A DNA stretch of 64,000 nucleotides, from the NCBI GenBank assembly GCA_012034805.1, contig JAAUOP010000007.1, positions 1,003 through 65,002 of the forward strand, in the 5' to 3' direction. Positions 51,063 through 58,492 of this stretch are shown here, piece by piece. Each line of letters opens with the position of its first letter. Positions within the stretch are counted from its first letter, which is position 1. Made by a program: the position numbers and the translations under genes. The stretch comes from Synechococcales cyanobacterium CRU_2_2. Lineage in GTDB: Bacteria > Cyanobacteriota > Cyanobacteriia > PCC-9006 > JAAUQQ01. The notes under the pieces are model-generated. The model was not told the DNA's origin, did no database searches, and was given only the letters and a program-made list of their open reading frames with translations.

Positions 51063-51758
51063 TTGTCTTGCAGGCTATCCATGACAAGAACCCACTCTAG
51101 GCTGAGAATGCGGATGAGCGTGACGCAGTTGAGCGTGACGGTAGCTAGAACATTGGTCATCACCCTGGCGATCGCCGCCTGTAGTACACCTACAACCGAC
51201 CTACCTAAAGCAGGCCCGTCCAAAACCGGCCAGCTCAAAACCGATACAGCGAGACCGAGACTCCCAGCAGTCACCGGAACACCAGCGGCTGCACCGACAG
51301 CAAGCGAGGGCGATCGCGCCAAACCCTCCCAACCCCCAGCCGAACCTTCCCAGCTCCCGGCTCATAACGTCTCCGGGCAACCAGCCGCTTCACCCAAACT
51401 AGAAGCCTCCGCTCCAGCGGCACCCGGCAAGGTTGAAGTAAAAACAGCACCCACCCAAATTGCCATCAACGCCAGCGTTTGCGGCGCGGGCGGGCAAGCT
51501 GCCTACTTCGAAACCAAAAGCCAAGCGATCTACATTTGCCGTAGCGAAAACCAATCACTCACCTACATCGCAACGCCAAAGAAACAAGGCAATTCAATTT
51601 TTTTGCCCGCCACCGCGATTCCAGACGGCGATGAAACCGCCTACATGGCAGAAGACGGAGCACGCAGGTTTTTGATCGGCCCTGTCGGCTATCGGCTCGA
51701 AGAAAACGGTAAGGCGATCGCCCAAGAAAAGGTCATTCGCGATCGCCAATTTCCCTAA
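51063..51758 (+). CDS. Hypothetical exported protein or lipoprotein
   Basis: LVITLAIAACS lipobox-like, then a P/A/T-rich linker and a globular C-terminus. The start is ambiguous (Met codons at 51081, 51108 and 51114). Confidence 0.45.
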   Translation: MSCRLSMTRTHSRLRMRMSVTQLSVTVARTLVITLAIAACSTPTTDLPKAGPSKTGQLKTDTARPRLPAVTGTPAAAPTASEGDRAKPSQPPAEPSQLPAHNVSGQPAASPKLEASAPAAPGKVEVKTAPTQIAINASVCGAGGQAAYFETKSQAIYICRSENQSLTYIATPKKQGNSIFLPATAIPDGDETAYMAEDGARRFLIGPVGYRLEENGKAIAQEKVIRDRQFP

Positions 51759-52141
51759 TGTATCGAAACCGTATCCCAGCCACCGCCCTCTTCGCCAATG
51801 GCCAAGGTCGTCACCTCAAATGGGGGTTTGATCGGATGTTCGGGCTGCTCAATGGGCAGGGGATGAGGAATGGGCTTGGGCAGAGGTCTTGGGAAGGGCG
51901 GATGAGTGGGCCGACAAATCGGAAAGGGAGGACGAATGGGGAAGCCGGGGAAGTGGCCGCCTTCTTCTCCCAGCATTTTTGTCGTTGCGATCGATAAGCC
52001 GCCACTCACCGCAGCCGCGCCACCGGAGCCTGATGAGGAATGACTCGAAGAATCATCTGGCGTTGGACGGCCTTGCGCAGGCTGCTCCAAGGACTCACAG
52101 AGCTCTAGGTCAGCTAATTCGAAGGAAAAGGGATGTCTCAT
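51755..52141 (-). CDS. Pro-rich 128-aa hypothetical protein with a duplicated TT-x-[AM]-[LI]-GEEGG motif
   Basis: RBS gaggaag upstream. MRHPFSFELADLELCESLEQ..., TTKMLGEEGG ... PFPICRPTHPPFPRPLPKPIPHPLP ... TTLAIGEEGGG. No signal peptide. Same strand as, and downstream of, the lipase/Dev operon. Confidence 0.45.
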   Translation of the reverse strand: MRHPFSFELADLELCESLEQPAQGRPTPDDSSSHSSSGSGGAAAVSGGLSIATTKMLGEEGGHFPGFPIRPPFPICRPTHPPFPRPLPKPIPHPLPIEQPEHPIKPPFEVTTLAIGEEGGGWDTVSIH

Positions 52142-52273
52142 GAAGGCTTCCTCGTCAAAGGGTCGTTCAAACGTGATTGACCTGACTTTAGCGAAATGCC
52201 CGATTTGCGGGTTGCCATCCTGGCAGAAGTTTTCGCAAGATCTAGACCCAACTCCCCAACTCCTCCTAAAGAC

Positions 52274-54061
52274 TTACCTGACGAACCGAGGCTCTTCTAA
52301 GAGCGTAAAGAGCAAGTTATTGAGAATGGCCGTATCTCGGACGAGCTTGGCGTGCTCCTGCACATAAAAACTAATTCGACTCCAAGCGATCGGAGACTCC
52401 ATCCAGGACTGCTGCTGCGTGGGGAGCTGTTCCTCCAGTAGGGCATTCCTTCTCAAAACAACGCCGTCTCCCGGCCCTTGTTGAACCATTTTGAGTTTTC
52501 CTTTGGGATCAATCGCCACGACAGCAGGCGTCAAAAAACCATCCCCGGCAATGAGTTGTAAGTTCAACCCATCCGGCAAAGAAGCAGGGCGATCTAGGGC
52601 TTGGGTGAATCGCTCAGCCCGCTTCAAACAGCGCGACAGGTACTGTCGGGCGATCGCCTGACGCGCACTGACGCCCACTACATCGGGCAGCAAATAGCGC
52701 AACACTGGGTCACTTTTGGGGGAGAGCAACCCCCAGTGCATCCGCTCCCAGAGGGAGAGGTCAAATAAATTTGCAGCCGTTTGTGTTGGGGGCTTGGTCT
52801 CACTCAGTTCTAACACAGACTGATGTCGGGTTCGAGGCAACATCTGATAAAGTGATGGGAATGTTCCCCAGGTTGCCACCATCTTATCCGGTTTGCCTGG
52901 GCCAATTCCAACTTTACCCAGCCAAGAGCCCAAGTTCATCAGGGGATCGCTACCGGGTTTAGGAGGGTTGAGAAACTTTCCTTGGGTTAATTGAACCAAT
53001 GTTTCTAAGGTTCCCCCATTGGGGGGGCCGAGTAAAATAACGCGATCGACATAGCGTGCTCCAGCCCAAGTTATTTCTGGTAGAGGCCCTTGATCCGGCA
53101 AGGGGCGATCGCCATACAGGAGAAAATATCGTGTCAGCAATCCCCCCATCGAATGGGCGATAATATCAAATTTAATCTCAGCGGGCTCAAGACCCCAACG
53201 CTCCCTATATTCTTGGCGTAAGTACTCGCTTTTTTCTAAAATAAATTCGTTTAGAAGTTGTGCATTTTCGGCATTGTCCCTGCGCCAGTCATAGGCAAAT
53301 TGAAAGCGATCAAAATTATCATCTTTAGAACGGGCTTGCCGATCATTAGCTTGTTGATGGCTAGTTTTTTGATGACTAGCTTTTTGGTTGTTGACTTGTA
53401 CTTTGGTTTGTATTGAAGAGAGCGACTTTGAAGAATCGAGATTTGAAAATTGTGATTCTGCCTCTTTTTTGGCTACATTTGCTGCATTCTGGTTTGGGTT
53501 TGGGTTTGGGTTTGGGTTTGGGTTTGAATTTGAGTTTGAATTTGGATTTGGGTTTAGGCTCTGAAAATTTAGATCTTGTAAATTTCGATCTAATGAAGAC
53601 TGACTTGAGATTGAAAGACTACCATTGACAGTGCCTAGGGCCTCAATAATTTGTCGGTAGGAGTCTCTCTCCCAAATCCATCCCAATAGATTTGTTTTGC
53701 GACTAGGCTCAACTCGGTCAAATCTAACTGTATCCGAGATTGAATTATTGTGAATCGGCAGCGCAAGTTGGGTGAAATCGCTCTTGAGACTAAACTCGCC
53801 CCAAACTTTTTCATATTTGGTATTGACGAGACTAGAACCAAACATTCCTGGAATCAAAATAACTGGATTACGAATTTTTCCAGATCGTTGGATTAAATTA
53901 GTATAAACTCTCTGTAGCTCAACATTTACTTCAGGCGATTGTTCAGGCCAAGGTATAGAAATCCGATTCGAGCCGATCACAATTAATAGAGTCAAGAGAA
54001 ACAGGAGCTTTGATGTTTGCTTAATTCGGATAAATTTGAAGACTTTTCGGATTTTATTCAA
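52274..54061 (-). CDS. Membrane-anchored alpha/beta hydrolase, LCAT/PGAP1-like lipase or acyltransferase
   Basis: N-terminal TM helix. VILIPGMFGSSLVN (oxyanion region) and DIIAHSMGGLLTRYF (GxSxG). Low-complexity insert (NP/NS repeats). Confidence 0.65.
   Translation of the reverse strand: MNKIRKVFKFIRIKQTSKLLFLLTLLIVIGSNRISIPWPEQSPEVNVELQRVYTNLIQRSGKIRNPVILIPGMFGSSLVNTKYEKVWGEFSLKSDFTQLALPIHNNSISDTVRFDRVEPSRKTNLLGWIWERDSYRQIIEALGTVNGSLSISSQSSLDRNLQDLNFQSLNPNPNSNSNSNPNPNPNPNPNQNAANVAKKEAESQFSNLDSSKSLSSIQTKVQVNNQKASHQKTSHQQANDRQARSKDDNFDRFQFAYDWRRDNAENAQLLNEFILEKSEYLRQEYRERWGLEPAEIKFDIIAHSMGGLLTRYFLLYGDRPLPDQGPLPEITWAGARYVDRVILLGPPNGGTLETLVQLTQGKFLNPPKPGSDPLMNLGSWLGKVGIGPGKPDKMVATWGTFPSLYQMLPRTRHQSVLELSETKPPTQTAANLFDLSLWERMHWGLLSPKSDPVLRYLLPDVVGVSARQAIARQYLSRCLKRAERFTQALDRPASLPDGLNLQLIAGDGFLTPAVVAIDPKGKLKMVQQGPGDGVVLRRNALLEEQLPTQQQSWMESPIAWSRISFYVQEHAKLVRDTAILNNLLFTLLEEPRFVR
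53491..53556. repeat. Hexanucleotide microsatellite (ggtttg)x6 plus degenerate copies inside the lipase CDS
   Basis: Read directly. Encodes the NPNPNPNPNPN / NSNSNS tract on the minus strand. Confidence 0.9.
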
Positions 54062-54230
54062 GTGAATAGGCGAAAAAATCTAAGCTGAGAATTCAAAGAT
54101 TTTCGACGAAAAAAATGTTTAATAAAACCATAATCTACTAGAATCGTGACTTTTCTATGAAAATTAATAATTTTAGGACGATTTTGAGATCTGACCTGAT
54201 GCGACATTCGGATTTACCTTCTCTTTGTTT

Positions 54231-54932
54231 TTAATTAAATTTTGACAAGTTCACGACTTTTAAGCAGCCATCTTCTAAATTAATAATGCGATCAGCAATA
54301 TCTAAAATCCGATTGTCGTGGGTCACAATCAAGATCGTGCAGTTTTGTTGCTTTGCAAGCTGCTGCATGAGCTCTACGATCGCCCGACCACTCACTTTAT
54401 CCAAAGATGCTGTGGGCTCATCGGCTAGAATCAGCTGAGGTTGATGTACCAGGGCACGGGCAACAGCAACTCTCTGGTTTTGTCCGCCGGAAAGCTGATG
54501 AGGATAGGTGTTGCAGTAAGCACCTAAACCAACCTGAGTGAGAATTTGTTGCGATCGCCACACTGCCTCCTCCATCCCCATCGAATTGCTCAATACCAGA
54601 GGCATTTGAACATTTTGCTGAGCAGTCAGCGCTGTGAGTAGATTGTGAGCTTGGAAGATAAAACCAATCTTCTGCCGGGTGCGCTCTAAAATCTTTTCTG
54701 AGGCTCCCTGAATCGGATGACCTAAAACCTCAAGACTTCCCGCTTGTACAGATCTTAAACCACCAATTAAAGACAGTAACGTGCTTTTTCCCGAGCCAGA
54801 GGGGCCGTTCATAATCACAATTTCGCCGGGGTGAATATCCAGATCAATCTCAAAGAGAATCTGTTTGCGTAGGACAGACTTACCGTAGTAGTGATTCAGT
54901 TTTCTGGCGCTGATGATGGGCTTTAGGGACAT
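54231..54932 (-). CDS. DevA-family ABC exporter ATP-binding protein
   Basis: Walker A GPSGSGKST, signature LSGGQNQRVAVARAL, Walker B LILADEPTASLD. MacB/LolD-like. Confidence 0.85.
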   Translation of the reverse strand: MSLKPIISARKLNHYYGKSVLRKQILFEIDLDIHPGEIVIMNGPSGSGKSTLLSLIGGLRSVQAGSLEVLGHPIQGASEKILERTRQKIGFIFQAHNLLTALTAQQNVQMPLVLSNSMGMEEAVWRSQQILTQVGLGAYCNTYPHQLSGGQNQRVAVARALVHQPQLILADEPTASLDKVSGRAIVELMQQLAKQQNCTILIVTHDNRILDIADRIINLEDGCLKVVNLSKFN

Positions 54933-54979
54933 AGGTCTAACAGATCAAGATTGGGAAAGATTGGCGATCGCTGTGAAGT

Positions 54980-56173
54980 TCAGCCATAAACATCAGCGGG
55001 GTCAAGGCGACGAAGCTTCTGGGACGCCAAGAAACCGGAAATTAGACACATCGACATTGTCAACAGAAAAACAAGATGAACCGTATTTGAGCTGGTACTG
55101 AGCACTAGTCCTGTCGCATTAGAAATTAGACGACACAACAAAACACTCAGCCAAAATCCGGGAATAAATCCAGCAATGGCAACTGTCATCGATTGGAGCA
55201 AAACGACTTGAATCAGATATAAGCGAGGATAGCCGATCGCCCGTAATGTTCCGTACTGAGGTACATTTTCATCTATGTTCGTATAAATAATATTATAGAC
55301 CATGACAATACCGACAACAAAGGCAAGCCCAGTACCCATTTCAAAGATAAAGCCAATGGCCGTCGAACGGATCCAAAATTTCGCTTCTTCTTCGAGTAGA
55401 CGCTGTTTCGTTTTGACAATAACATCTGTCGGCAATTCTTGATTTAATGCCTGAACAACTTGCTCAATATCGGCATTCGACTTGAGCTTAATTAGGCCCA
55501 GATCAACCTGTTGCGGTGAGGCTCGAATATTGCCTGCAATACCCGAGGGCTGGCTAACAAATAAATTAAAAAATGTCTGATCTCCCATGATTAAGTTGCC
55601 TTCAGCAACGAAGTTTGAACCCAGAGTAAATGTATCAGTAATCAGTACTGAATGGCCTGAAAGCTCTGCCTGTATACCAGAGTTGAGTGAACCATAAACT
55701 GCTTTTGAGCGACTATCTGCGAGAGTCGTGTAGCTTGTTTTCAGGCTTAGCTGCGCACGTTTGATCTCAGGAGTTAGAAAGACTGGGTACTCGGGATTAA
55801 AGGCAAAGATTCGAATCGGACGCTCTTCGCGGGCATTCAGGGCTCGCCAACTACCCAGCGTAATGTACAGCGGATAGGCATTTTTCACTGCTGCCATGCC
55901 TCTGGCTTGGTAGAGGCGGCTTTGGTCAAAGGTAATTTCTAGATGACTAACCCGTCGATTGCGGTGAACCATGATCAAATCGGCATCGAGCTCTCGAATA
56001 AAGGCAGCACTCGTGCTCGACACGGCGTAGCGAAAGCTGAGTTGGGAAAACATCAAAAAGACGACAAAGGCGATCGCCATTAATGCCGTCAGAAATTGAT
56101 CTCGGCGCTCAAACAAATTGTGCCAAGCGATAGAGCACTTAAAGAGAACAACCGGGATGCGCCTAAAAAACAT
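54980..56173 (-). CDS. DevC-family (FtsX-like) ABC exporter permease, copy 2
   Basis: N-terminus ...IAWHNLFERRDQFLTALMAIAFVVFLMFSQLSF. C-terminal FtsX 3-TM bundle with LRAIGY. Start at 56173 overlaps the upstream gene by 11 nt. Confidence 0.8.
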   Translation of the reverse strand: MFFRRIPVVLFKCSIAWHNLFERRDQFLTALMAIAFVVFLMFSQLSFRYAVSSTSAAFIRELDADLIMVHRNRRVSHLEITFDQSRLYQARGMAAVKNAYPLYITLGSWRALNAREERPIRIFAFNPEYPVFLTPEIKRAQLSLKTSYTTLADSRSKAVYGSLNSGIQAELSGHSVLITDTFTLGSNFVAEGNLIMGDQTFFNLFVSQPSGIAGNIRASPQQVDLGLIKLKSNADIEQVVQALNQELPTDVIVKTKQRLLEEEAKFWIRSTAIGFIFEMGTGLAFVVGIVMVYNIIYTNIDENVPQYGTLRAIGYPRLYLIQVVLLQSMTVAIAGFIPGFWLSVLLCRLISNATGLVLSTSSNTVHLVFLLTMSMCLISGFLASQKLRRLDPADVYG

Positions 56174-57323
56174 TGGCAGGATCCGCAGTAAAAATGCGAC
56201 GGGCAGCCCAACAGCCAGAGGTGCCACACATAGTCAAAGACAAGCCAAAAATCAGTCCCACTCGCCCGAGGGTCATGGCAATGGGCAATCGAGTGCTTAT
56301 CCAAATCAGCTGATAAAGCCCCAGCGAAACAAGAAAGCCGGGCACAAACCCGAGCAGCGCTAAAATTACCGCCTCCTGCAAAACAACATTAAACAAACGT
56401 TGATTGCTAAATCCGATCGCCTTGAGCACGGCATACTCTTGCAGATGCTCGCTGACGTCAGCATGGAGGACTTGATAGACAATCACACCCCCCACTAAAA
56501 CTGCCATCACAGCTCCGACACTGATCACAAAGCCTGTAGAAGTTGTTTTGACCCAGTAGGTTTGGTCTTTGGCGATCGCCTCCTGACGGCTCAAAATATT
56601 CACATTCAGCGGTAACTTTTCGCGTAAAGTTGCTAAAACAGCATCACCATCAGCTCCAGGTTCTAGTTTGATCAATCCCAAGTTAATCGCACTGAGGGAA
56701 CGTCCGGGGTGTAAACGGCTAAAGTTTTGGTCGCTGGTCAGCACAGTGCCATTGGCTCGAAGCGTATTGCTAAGGCGAAATTGACCAACAATTTCCACCA
56801 CGCGACCGCGTAGTTCTGTCCTGACACCAAGGGAGCGATCGCCAAATTCTGGCCTCGAAAACTGATTGATCAGCACCGTATCTTGGCGCTGGAGTTGAGT
56901 GGAGGAATGACTGAGTTCAAGATTTCTAAAAACAGAGTCTTGGGGCTTAAATCCAAGAATCATAATGCCCCAATTTTCCTGACTGGTCGGATTTCGCCAA
57001 GGTCCAAAGGAAATGTAAATTGGGGTCACCGCAGCAATCCCTTGAGCTCCAGCCGCCTGATAGAGAATTCGCTGATCGAACGGGTTAGAGAAACTCGCCT
57101 CCAAGGATTTGGAAGAAAGCAGCACAATGTCAAAATCTAAAGTGTCGTAGATCAAGCTCGCGGATTTCTTCACGGCTCCGAGTAAGCCGATTTGCAGAAA
57201 CATCAGAGCGGAAGCAAAGCTAATAGAAGAGACCGCCACTGCCAAACGTACTTTGTTTTGGGTCAAATTATGCCAAGGCAGGGCTGGCCCTCGCCAAGGA
57301 CGCCGCCTGATGCCGCTGGTCAT
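56163..57323 (-). CDS. DevC-family (FtsX-like) ABC exporter permease, copy 1
   Basis: LPWHNLTQNKVRLAVAVSSISFASALMFLQIGL. C-terminal LKAIGFS and 3 TM helices. ATGA overlap with the DevB-like gene. Confidence 0.8.
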   Translation of the reverse strand: MTSGIRRRPWRGPALPWHNLTQNKVRLAVAVSSISFASALMFLQIGLLGAVKKSASLIYDTLDFDIVLLSSKSLEASFSNPFDQRILYQAAGAQGIAAVTPIYISFGPWRNPTSQENWGIMILGFKPQDSVFRNLELSHSSTQLQRQDTVLINQFSRPEFGDRSLGVRTELRGRVVEIVGQFRLSNTLRANGTVLTSDQNFSRLHPGRSLSAINLGLIKLEPGADGDAVLATLREKLPLNVNILSRQEAIAKDQTYWVKTTSTGFVISVGAVMAVLVGGVIVYQVLHADVSEHLQEYAVLKAIGFSNQRLFNVVLQEAVILALLGFVPGFLVSLGLYQLIWISTRLPIAMTLGRVGLIFGLSLTMCGTSGCWAARRIFTADPANVF

Positions 57324-58492
57324 GATTCTTTTCCCGATGGGGGGGGCTCAAGCTCAATCTCGACATCAACCTGCATGTTGCTGAGCTGAGCAACGGGCTG
57401 GCTTTGATCCAGCTTGAGGGTCACTTCGACGACCCGTGCATTGGTTCGCGCGGTGGGATCGTCTCCCAAGATGTCGTTTTTAAAGACGAGTTGCCCGACT
57501 TGAACCACTTGTCCGGTGAGAGATTGGGCGAGGGCTGGGCTGGTAATTTGGGCCTTTTGCCCCAAGCGGATCAAATTCACGTCGGTTTCGAAGACTTCGG
57601 CCACAGCAACCATCCGTTGCGTATTGCCCAAGGTTAAAATGCCTTGGGCATTCACGGCCTCGCCGGGCTGGGTCAGAATTTGCAGGACTTGGCCCGGTTG
57701 TTTGGCCCGAATGATGGCTTGCTCGAGTTGGGAGGCGGCGAGGGCCTGCTCCTGTTGCGCAGTTGCTAATCCCTGGTTGATCAACGCAAATTGGGCCGTC
57801 GCCTGCTCCACACTGGTTTGAGCACTGTCAAGGGTTGTACTACGAGCCGAAATCAGTTGGGCTAAGGTCGCTTTTGCCTGACTCAAGTTTTCGGTGGCTT
57901 GGCTAACGACGAGTGATTTTTGATCGATCTCCTGTCGAGAAATTGCGCCTTGTTGGTAAAGCTGGTTGTGGCGATCGCGAGCCTGAACCGCCTGAGTCCG
58001 TTCAATTTCGAGCCTTCGCACCACAGCTTCCTGGGCCTCAATTTGCAGAGCCTGGGGACGATCAATTTGCTGGACTTGCGATCGCGCCTGACGAACCGAA
58101 ATCTGATTTAAGGCCTGCTCATGCTTAATTTTTGCCTCTAGCTCCTGCACCCGACTCTGGGCCAATTGAAGCCGGGCCTGCATTTCTGGATATTGATTCA
58201 AATAGGCCAGGATCTGGTTGGGCTTGACCCAATCGCCTGACTTGACCGCCAATGAGGCGACAGTGCTGCCCACCGGAGCCGCAATTTTAATCACCCCCCC
58301 GTCGGGTTCGACCCGACCCCGAGCGACCACCCTGGAACGAATAGTATCGTATGATACAACTGAAGCCAGGTTGTTCTGAGCGGGTCTCAGGGACTTGACG
58401 AGTACGAAAGCGGTGACCAGCAGCAACCCACAAGTCACGATGCCGCCGAGGAGGGAGAAGGGTTTTCGATCCGGAAGAGCGACCATATCCAA
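57320..58492 (-). CDS. DevB-family (HlyD-like) membrane-fusion protein
   Basis: N-terminal TM helix, lipoyl-like hairpin, long coiled coil (LQLAQSRVQELEAKIKHEQ...), beta-barrel C-terminus. Confidence 0.8.
   Translation of the reverse strand: MDMVALPDRKPFSLLGGIVTCGLLLVTAFVLVKSLRPAQNNLASVVSYDTIRSRVVARGRVEPDGGVIKIAAPVGSTVASLAVKSGDWVKPNQILAYLNQYPEMQARLQLAQSRVQELEAKIKHEQALNQISVRQARSQVQQIDRPQALQIEAQEAVVRRLEIERTQAVQARDRHNQLYQQGAISRQEIDQKSLVVSQATENLSQAKATLAQLISARSTTLDSAQTSVEQATAQFALINQGLATAQQEQALAASQLEQAIIRAKQPGQVLQILTQPGEAVNAQGILTLGNTQRMVAVAEVFETDVNLIRLGQKAQITSPALAQSLTGQVVQVGQLVFKNDILGDDPTARTNARVVEVTLKLDQSQPVAQLSNMQVDVEIELEPPPSGKES

Follow-up and report, generated by a model that had tools for sequence, protein, structure and literature searches.

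A two-permease DevBCA-type exporter with an LCAT-like lipase beside a predicted plesiocin-like graspetide precursor gene in a Synechococcales cyanobacterium

The heterocyst glycolipid exporter DevBCA-HgdD of Anabaena sp. PCC 7120 has its TolC-like duct encoded elsewhere in the genome, one TolC/HgdD-like duct has been described as completing several Dev paralogues in Anabaena, and related Dev pumps are known from lipidic natural-product clusters (e.g., bartolosides). We analyzed a 64,000-nucleotide stretch (the window; contig JAAUOP010000007.1, positions 1,003 to 65,002) of the genome of Synechococcales cyanobacterium CRU_2_2 (5.32 Mb, 332 contigs, 88.9% complete, 54.9% GC), in which six minus-strand genes at 51755-58492 encode a DevB-DevC-DevC-DevA pump, an LCAT-like lipase, and a 128-residue protein that we predict to be a graspetide precursor. 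The pump comprises the same three protein families as DevBCA-HgdD, its genes stand in the same order, and its TolC-like duct is likewise encoded elsewhere; it differs in having two paralogous permeases, the second of which (DevC2) scores below the equivalog cut-off, in the attached LCAT-like gene, and in a neighborhood where no hgl genes were found. Nothing ties the window's pump specifically to heterocyst glycolipids, the association that the initial annotation of this DNA had drawn on.

Three other described systems bear on the locus. LolCDE is a precedent for two paralogous four-helix MacB-type permeases served by one ATPase species, and it handles an acylated substrate at the outer leaflet of the inner membrane; unlike the Dev pump, it has neither a membrane fusion protein nor a TolC partner, and it is not close in sequence (the window's DevA scored 205 bits against the LolD model, below the cut-off of 307.75). 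LCAT and LPLA2 (PF02450; PDB 4X90, 5TXF) and the type VI secretion system lipase effector Tle4 (PDB 4R1D) share the alpha/beta-hydrolase fold, the AHSMG elbow, and the Ser-Asp-His triad with the window's lipase, which is 13-21% identical to them and differs in its bacterial N-terminal anchor, in a 100-residue disordered insert unique to its lineage, and in a 22-residue insert that is common to the aligned cyanobacterial members (the unlinked P0003-P0005 included) and missing from LCAT, LPLA2, and Tle4; immunity or VgrG genes, expected for Tle4, are not present. In plesiocin, a group 2 graspetide (precursor PsnA2, macrocyclase PsnB), as in the 128-residue protein, a single precursor carries more than one TTxxxxEE core after its N-terminal leader. 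The window's precursor differs in its leader, which carries MxHPFxL..DLE rather than LFIEDL, in its Pro-rich spacers, and in a candidate ligase that is encoded on another contig and scores below the TIGR04187 cut-off.

The explanation that we favor, and regard as moderately probable, is that a five-gene lipid-handling export module lies here side by side with an independent graspetide precursor that is matured in trans. It draws on the gene identities, the family memberships, the duplication pattern of the permeases, and the co-occurrence data, all of which were observed.

The pump and its lipase neighbor

All six previously called minus-strand open reading frames (ORFs) of the block were present at their positions. 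The first, devB (57320-58492), encodes a 390-residue membrane fusion protein, or periplasmic adaptor, with HlyD_3 and HlyD_D23 domains (TIGR02971, 262.2 bits against a cut-off of 129). It is followed by devC1 (56163-57323), the gene of the first-position FtsX/MacB-type permease (386 residues; TIGR01185, 327.6 bits, cut-off 290.35), by devC2 (54980-56227), that of the second-position permease (415 residues from a GTG start; 273.4 bits, just below the same cut-off), and by devA (54231-54932), which encodes a 233-residue ABC ATPase without a GAF domain (TIGR02982, 339.8 bits, cut-off 295.8). The likely start of devC2 is the ATG at 56173, giving the 397-residue form that is the database record. 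Overlaps measure 4 nt between devB and devC1 and 11-65 nt between devC1 and devC2, depending on the start chosen; 47 nt separate devC2 from devA. The same order (clpB, devB, devC, devC, devA, LCAT, 128-aa gene) was found on a related metagenome contig, L005, whose Dev proteins are 94-97% identical to those of the window, and here too clpB lies upstream of devB on the same strand. For all six genes dN/dS between the window and L005 was 0.08-0.23 (0.18 for the 128-aa gene), which indicates that all of them, the small one included, are real coding genes and evolve under purifying selection.

DevC1 and DevC2 are 32% identical to each other, and the closest relative of DevC2 (55% identity) came from a Phormidesmis metagenome-assembled genome (MAG). 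In a maximum-likelihood tree of 55 permeases, with 23 two-permease loci from Cyanobacteriota and Planctomycetota, the permeases fell into three clades: position-1 (support 100/99), position-2 (100/99), and single-copy DevC (98/94). DevC1 stood in the position-1 clade and DevC2 in the position-2 clade, each as sister to its Phormidesmis counterpart (100/99), and the internal topologies of the two clades were congruent; in both, the window-Phormidesmis pair was sister to pumps of Nostoc and Acaryochloridaceae (97/83 and 100/97). Such separate, congruent clades point to one ancient duplication followed by co-inheritance, as would be expected of an obligate heterodimer, and DevC1 and DevC2 probably form one. 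The DevBCA-type exporter with two distinct permeases that the initial annotation had proposed, heterodimer suggestion included, thus agrees with both the family matches and the tree.

Two-permease B-C-C-A operons are common: a scan of species genomes showed this order at the 17 nearest loci to DevC2, several truncated where their contigs end, and at 39 of 63 more distant loci, eight of the latter from Planctomycetota; among 40 sampled relatives, two had B-C-C-A operons, amid unrelated neighbors. The two-permease operons of Planctomycetota MAGs (L141, L146, L149, L154, L160, L167, L168, L171) branch within cyanobacterial diversity, a placement that suggests transfer between phyla. In Nostoc and several other cyanobacteria (L097, L101-L111, L114, L115), the two-permease pump has a DevA with a fused GAF domain (∼440 residues). 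The window contains no cyclic-nucleotide domain. A single TolC/HgdD-like outer-membrane gene was present in the window's genome (G000:C145), with two PF02321 repeats (105 and 89 bits). In the literature searched, we found no paper describing two-permease Dev operons.

The lipase gene (52274-54061) begins 169 nt after devA and, read from a TTG at 54061, encodes a 595-residue LCAT/LPLA2-like alpha/beta hydrolase with an N-terminal hydrophobic helix (PF02450, 28.9 bits, cut-off 21). Its family is a widespread one of bacterial LCAT-like proteins of about 475 residues, and Ser304 (in AHSMGG), Asp532, and His570 were invariant in an alignment of nine members. A Foldseek search with the AlphaFold model (predicted local distance difference test, pLDDT, 80-93 in the core and 65 overall) returned LPLA2, LCAT, and Tle4 as best matches (E-values 9e-10 to 2e-7); for the LCAT/LPLA2 structures, E-values were 9e-10 to 1e-8 and TM-scores, normalized by target, 0.45-0.57. 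Residues 144-248 had pLDDT values below 50. They coincide with a lineage-specific low-complexity insert (about residues 145-248; 53318-53629, minus strand) that is missing from all other family members, is hypervariable in comparison with an 81%-identical relative, and contains a GGTTTG x 10.8 microsatellite (53491-53555, minus strand; Tandem Repeats Finder).

Family members from other phyla start with lipoprotein signals and cyanobacterial ones with a hydrophobic helix, so the lipase is likely membrane-tethered and extracytoplasmic, probably facing the periplasm. The TTG start retains both the helix and the invariant RNPVILIPG motif; the 523-residue start of the database record would remove both and looks too short. 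An upstream ATG is in frame in L005 but, owing to a single-base difference in a run of T (54062-54206, minus strand), not in the window; the difference reflects an error of assembly or a true frameshift. The extension from this ATG is fast-evolving and absent from other family members and is therefore probably non-coding. Of the membrane-anchored hydrolase with an AHSMGG nucleophile that had been proposed, the nucleophile was confirmed, and the anchor holds only with the TTG start at 54061.

The neighbors of related pumps carry the case for a lipid; judged from the pump loci the tie between pump and lipase is strong, and judged from the lipase loci it looks weak. In the Phormidesmis MAG, which has the closest pump, the DevB-C-C-A genes are followed by an LCAT-like gene (PF02450, 32.1 bits) that overlaps devA by 4 nt. 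The sister pumps of Nostoc and Acaryochloridaceae have a class-3 lipase (Lipase_3) directly upstream and lie near genes for a fatty acyl-AMP ligase (FAAL), an acyl carrier protein (ACP), and a thioesterase (FAAL-ACP-thioesterase) and near polyketide synthase (PKS) genes, and the Acaryochloridaceae locus has a wax-ester synthase/DGAT (WS/DGAT) gene in addition; FAAL-like genes also follow devA at two more loci of the wider pump clade. The window, Phormidesmis, Nostoc, and Acaryochloridaceae pumps thus form a well-supported four-member clade with a lipase-family neighbor in every member, drawn from two families. In the LCAT tree, the Dev-linked LCATs of the window and Phormidesmis grouped together (86/89, with a long Phormidesmis branch), in agreement with the permease trees. 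A lipase-family neighbor across a pump clade of four lineages supports, as the substrate, a lipidic compound that the enzyme makes or trims, and the pump probably handles a lipid. The coupling of a lipase or acyltransferase to the exporter, as first suggested, is supported by the 4-nt overlap in Phormidesmis, the lipid genes at the sister pumps, and the grouping of the Dev-linked LCATs.

The same data bear on two other explanations. The pump could be a general drug or metabolite efflux paralogue, with the lipase gene an unrelated passenger and no functional coupling. Published work assigns several Anabaena DevBCA paralogues a role in drug resistance and not in lipid export, most two-permease Dev operons are surrounded by unrelated genes, and the LCAT family is usually not found beside Dev genes. 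We nevertheless regard a mere passenger as rather unlikely, given that a lipase-family gene is directly adjacent in 4/4 lineages of the pump subclade (in one with the 4-nt overlap, i.e., translational coupling), that FAAL, PKS, and WS/DGAT genes occur at the sister loci, and that the LCAT and permease trees concur on the window-Phormidesmis pair.

Alternatively, the lipase could itself be the cargo, entering the periplasm through Sec and then being secreted across the outer membrane by the Dev pump and TolC. The signal-like segment at its N terminus and the ability of MacB-type pumps to expel periplasmic proteins or peptides would fit such a route, and ABC-dependent secretion classically handles lipases. 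The protein cargoes known for MacB-type pumps are small, however, and the lipase (∼65 kDa) would already be folded in the periplasm; its homologues in other phyla are lipoproteins, i.e., retained at the membrane, and a signal sequence is lacking from the class-3 lipase that Nostoc has next to its sister pumps. With these points against it, secretion of the lipase appears very improbable, and we continue with the enzyme as a partner that makes or trims what the pump exports.

The 128-residue protein and its candidate ligase

The small gene (51755-52141, minus strand) had been described as coding for an orphan Pro-rich protein, and the product had no family match in the profile libraries searched. 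An exhaustive profile-free search of 1.84 billion proteins recovered 18 representatives, so the protein is not an orphan, and among cyanobacteria its family was found in 24 of 401 species genomes and 17 of 169 genera. The window's protein consists of a leader, MRHPFSFELADLE...VSGG, a first core (TTKMLGEE, residues 53-60; 51962-51985, minus strand), a Pro-rich spacer, and a second core (TTLAIGEE, residues 111-118; 51788-51811, minus strand). Throughout the family, a leader of the form M-x-HPF-x-L...DLE and an acidic stretch ending in V-G-G-G-L-S precede two to four TT-x-A-[LI]-GEEGG repeats with Pro-rich spacers, and in an alignment of 13 members (A1) residues T53, T54, E59, and E60 and T111, T112, E117, and E118 were invariant or nearly so. 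Both cores fit TTxxxxEE, the plesiocin core motif, in which each Thr becomes linked to a Glu through an ester formed by an ATP-grasp ligase. By these features the protein is classed as a plesiocin-like (group 2 type) graspetide precursor with predicted Thr-Glu ester rings.

One family member is included in the graspetide set predicted by RODEO, so the precursor class has already been catalogued; we found no experimental work on it in the literature searched, and matches to the GEEGG core in paper texts were due to chance. The gene downstream of a 50%-identity cyanobacterial LCAT homologue (L008), considered as a candidate relative, proved unrelated. In a second sub-family (P0128-P0133), a different N terminus, MxGIFNYQVPG, precedes between four and eight TTLA[VL]GEEDGG repeats, and one of its members, of 381 residues, has an additional C-terminal domain.

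In 19/19 other genomes with enough flanking DNA, and likewise on two metagenome contigs, the precursor gene directly adjoins an ATP-grasp ligase. The only graspetide-type ATP-grasp of the window's genome lies on another contig (G000:C101; hereafter the C101 ATP-grasp), and the congener (G001) also has its ligase on a separate contig. The C101 ATP-grasp is 50-58% identical to the ligases beside family precursors, its best match among solved structures was PsnB, the plesiocin macrocyclase (E-value 5.5e-29), and its best NCBIfam matches were all maturases for peptides that ribosomes make and that are modified post-translationally (RiPPs), below their cut-offs. A complex prediction for this ligase with precursor residues 1-66 scored 0.29 (mark, 0.34), a value that counts neither way.

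An exporter candidate also emerged from these neighborhoods. C39-peptidase ABC transporters, the usual partner of Gly-Gly leaders, were encoded close to the precursor (within about 6 kb) in 9 of the 19 other genomes, often with a cyclic-nucleotide domain. In the window's genome there are three C39 ORFs, of which one shares the contig of the ligase. A gene next to the C101 ligase codes for a 314-residue secreted protein that is found with the ligase in at least six further genomes. Proteins of this kind (about 290-314 residues, with a hydrophobic C-terminal segment followed by basic residues) recur beside the ligase or the precursor, at G000:C101 (L011:2289-3233; L095:11353-12297), L014, L012, L061, L063, L064, L074, and L094, and may be partner or processing proteins of the graspetide system. 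Peptidyl-prolyl isomerase genes adjoin graspetide genes in two lineages (PpiC type at L014:4949-5713, FKBP type in the congener at L080:5306-5554), an adjacency that resembles published isomerase-associated graspetides; the spacers of the precursor family are Pro-rich.

The 128-residue ORF might instead code for a structural or Pro-rich repeat protein with only a resemblance to the precursor of a modified peptide. The ATP-grasp is not adjacent in the window's genome, the complex prediction gave no verdict, and the ORF lacks a library family match, all of which such a protein would accommodate. Against this stand the adjacency of an ATP-grasp in 19/19 other genomes, the conserved architecture of leader, GG site, and core, and the retention of the orthologous ATP-grasp in both the window's genome and the congener. 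We judge a structural protein most unlikely and retain the assignment as a graspetide precursor.

Transcription units, base composition, and origin

The 128-aa gene had been taken as an extension of the exporter operon, from which it is separated by 132 nt downstream of the LCAT-like gene. In the congener, the precursor gene occupies the same position, convergent to the same lipoprotein gene, and has an FKBP-type gene upstream in place of the Dev-LCAT genes; conversely, the Phormidesmis Dev-LCAT module lacks a precursor gene. The ∼100 nt 5' of the precursor gene are ∼96% identical between the window and L005 and are thus more conserved than the synonymous sites of the neighboring genes. Blocks of this conserved non-coding region (52142-52245, minus strand) are common to the window and the congener (L080:5167-5310) despite the different upstream gene, among them the inverted repeat TGCCAGGATGGCA, which is a perfect one (TGCCA-GGA-TGGCA). 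The sharing of this 5' region with the congener suggests that the precursor gene has its own regulatory region, and 52142-52245 is probably its promoter, operator, or 5' untranslated region. We therefore infer two same-strand units, Unit A (52274-58492; the Dev pump and lipase) and Unit B (51755-52141; the precursor), and the precursor is most likely an independent neighbor of the Dev-lipase module rather than part of an extended operon. A promoter and terminator scan of the block was uninformative, giving fewer sites than shuffled sequence.

A contrary arrangement would have all six genes form one system, in which the Dev pump exports the graspetide in place of a C39-ABC transporter and the hydrolase tailors the peptide or removes its leader. 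The six genes do share a strand with no terminator predicted between them, the order is retained in L005, and the leader of the precursor is of the export type and includes a GG site. A published survey found ATP-grasp loci recurrently linked to HlyD-family adaptors, ABC ATPases, and alpha/beta hydrolases, and MacB-type pumps are reported to export toxins and further small proteins, dispersin from enteroaggregative E. coli being one example. Yet L005 is a close relative, so its synteny weighs little, and the congener has the precursor at this site without the Dev-LCAT genes while Phormidesmis has those genes without the precursor. A DevB-C-A set was found within 10 kb at 0/19 other precursor loci, as compared with C39-ABC exporters at nine, and the conserved 5' element of the precursor is older than the junction. 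A single six-gene system accordingly seems improbable to us, and two units side by side remain the preferred arrangement.

Convergent to the precursor gene, and overlapping its stop by 4 nt, is a plus-strand gene (51063-51758) for a predicted lipoprotein of 231 residues with the lipobox LAIAAC and no family match. The congener has the gene at the same position (L080:3931-4659), with 80% identity over the C-terminal 94 residues of the product; as a part of graspetide loci the gene was seen in the congener only and not at the loci of other genomes.

The block had also been called more A/T-rich than its neighbors and compatible with horizontal acquisition. We computed GC and GC at third codon positions (GC3) for each gene and ranked them among the genome's 2447 long ORFs. 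The composition is a gradient: devB, at 55.2% GC, is typical of the genome (percentiles 35 for GC and 27 for GC3), devC1 (49.5%; 6.0 and 5.6), devC2 (46.2%; 2.1 and 2.3), and devA (46.0%; 2.0 and 3.3) rank lower, and the LCAT gene is at percentiles 1.8 and 1.9. Within the lipase gene, the half coding for the N terminus has 38.7% GC, and the C-terminal half, at 53.0% (percentiles 17 and 12), is unremarkable; the AT-richest stretch comprises the low-complexity insert with its GGTTTG microsatellite and the devA-lipase spacer. The 128-aa gene (57.6% GC) is typical in GC (∼64th percentile) and lowish in GC3 (13th). AT-richness therefore applies to the central ∼3.5 kb and not to devB, the C-terminal half of the LCAT gene, or the 128-aa gene. 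HIP1 palindromes occur at 1.45 per kb in the block and 1.50 per kb genome-wide; a HIP1-free zone marking the AT-rich segment was ruled out, with sites at 54551 and 54964 and a density equal to the genome mean.

Neither the congener nor six same-family genomes had a match to the LCAT-like gene or anything above 35% identity to DevC2. The Dev-LCAT module was probably gained from another cyanobacterium and lies between clpB and a gene that was there before it. When flanking repeats, direct or inverted, were sought as marks of insertion, only HIP1 palindromes and the microsatellite turned up. Lateral acquisition is plausible, with the lack of matches in these genomes and the module's low GC3 in favor; the typical composition of devB and the normal HIP1 density weaken the case for a recent foreign origin, and the latter implies that, if the module is foreign, the donor was a HIP1-bearing cyanobacterium or the transfer was not recent. 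Just upstream of the Phormidesmis module lies a fragment of an IS240-type DDE transposase (L096:2402-2797), which is compatible with mobility of the module. The DNA runs listed for the window's DNA are stromatolite and plastisphere metagenomes.

A proposed division of labor and what it would mean

In the favored explanation, two copies of DevA would power a heterodimeric MacB-type permease of DevC1 and DevC2, which DevB would bridge to the single TolC/HgdD-like outer-membrane duct of the genome. The tethered LCAT/LPLA2-like serine acyl-hydrolase or acyl-transferase, probably facing the periplasm, would make or trim a lipidic substrate (e.g., a lyso-lipid, a free fatty acid, or an acylated product), and the pump would take this substrate from the outer face of the inner membrane and expel it. 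Separately, the C101 ATP-grasp would act in trans, recognizing the MxHPF...DLE leader and forming Thr-Glu ester rings in both TTxxxxEE cores; removal of the leader at the Gly-Gly site and export would most likely be carried out by a C39-peptidase ABC transporter and not by the Dev pump. The substrate, the topology of the lipase, the heterodimer, the modification of the precursor in trans, and the division into transcription units are the parts of this scheme reached by reasoning from sequence and models.

Several points weigh against it. Dev genes were found at 0/80 metagenome LCAT loci and at 0/6 other LCAT loci (L008, L010, L090, L091, L092, L093); the LCAT-like family as a whole is not associated with Dev genes, and the coupling rests on two LCAT lineages together with lipases of a different family. 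As the Nostoc class-3 lipase is without a signal sequence, the LCAT-like and class-3 lipases may have different jobs. The start of the lipase is itself uncertain, with the homopolymer frame difference lying just 5' of the TTG. On the graspetide side, the C101 ATP-grasp scored 152.8 bits against TIGR04187, for which the cut-off is 350, and the precursor's leader does not carry plesiocin's LFIEDL motif. Transcription of the lipase gene may also run on into the precursor gene.

A wider picture that joins these elements is one we advance only tentatively and hold to be doubtful. Two-permease Dev pumps would be an old, undescribed heterodimeric branch of the MacB type, present in Cyanobacteriota and Planctomycetota, of which one clade would repeatedly have recruited unrelated lipases (LCAT-like here, class 3 in Nostoc) as a "lipase plus pump" machine, cleaving acyl lipids at the inner membrane and expelling the product to the cell surface; in the present lineage, the machine would perhaps be co-expressed with a trans-matured graspetide and help to release it.

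DevBCA-like pumps are numerous in cyanobacteria, and substrates are known for very few of them. A clade tied to lipases and lipid-building enzymes offers a concrete, testable route to a substrate class and is relevant to the transport of lipids to or across the outer membrane in cyanobacteria. Should the two-permease form be an ancient heterodimeric branch of its own, LolCE would cease to be the sole heteromeric permease of the MacB type. For the peptide family, the locus indicates that the genes of graspetide precursors can lie far away from those of their ligases, where ligase-anchored mining would miss them.

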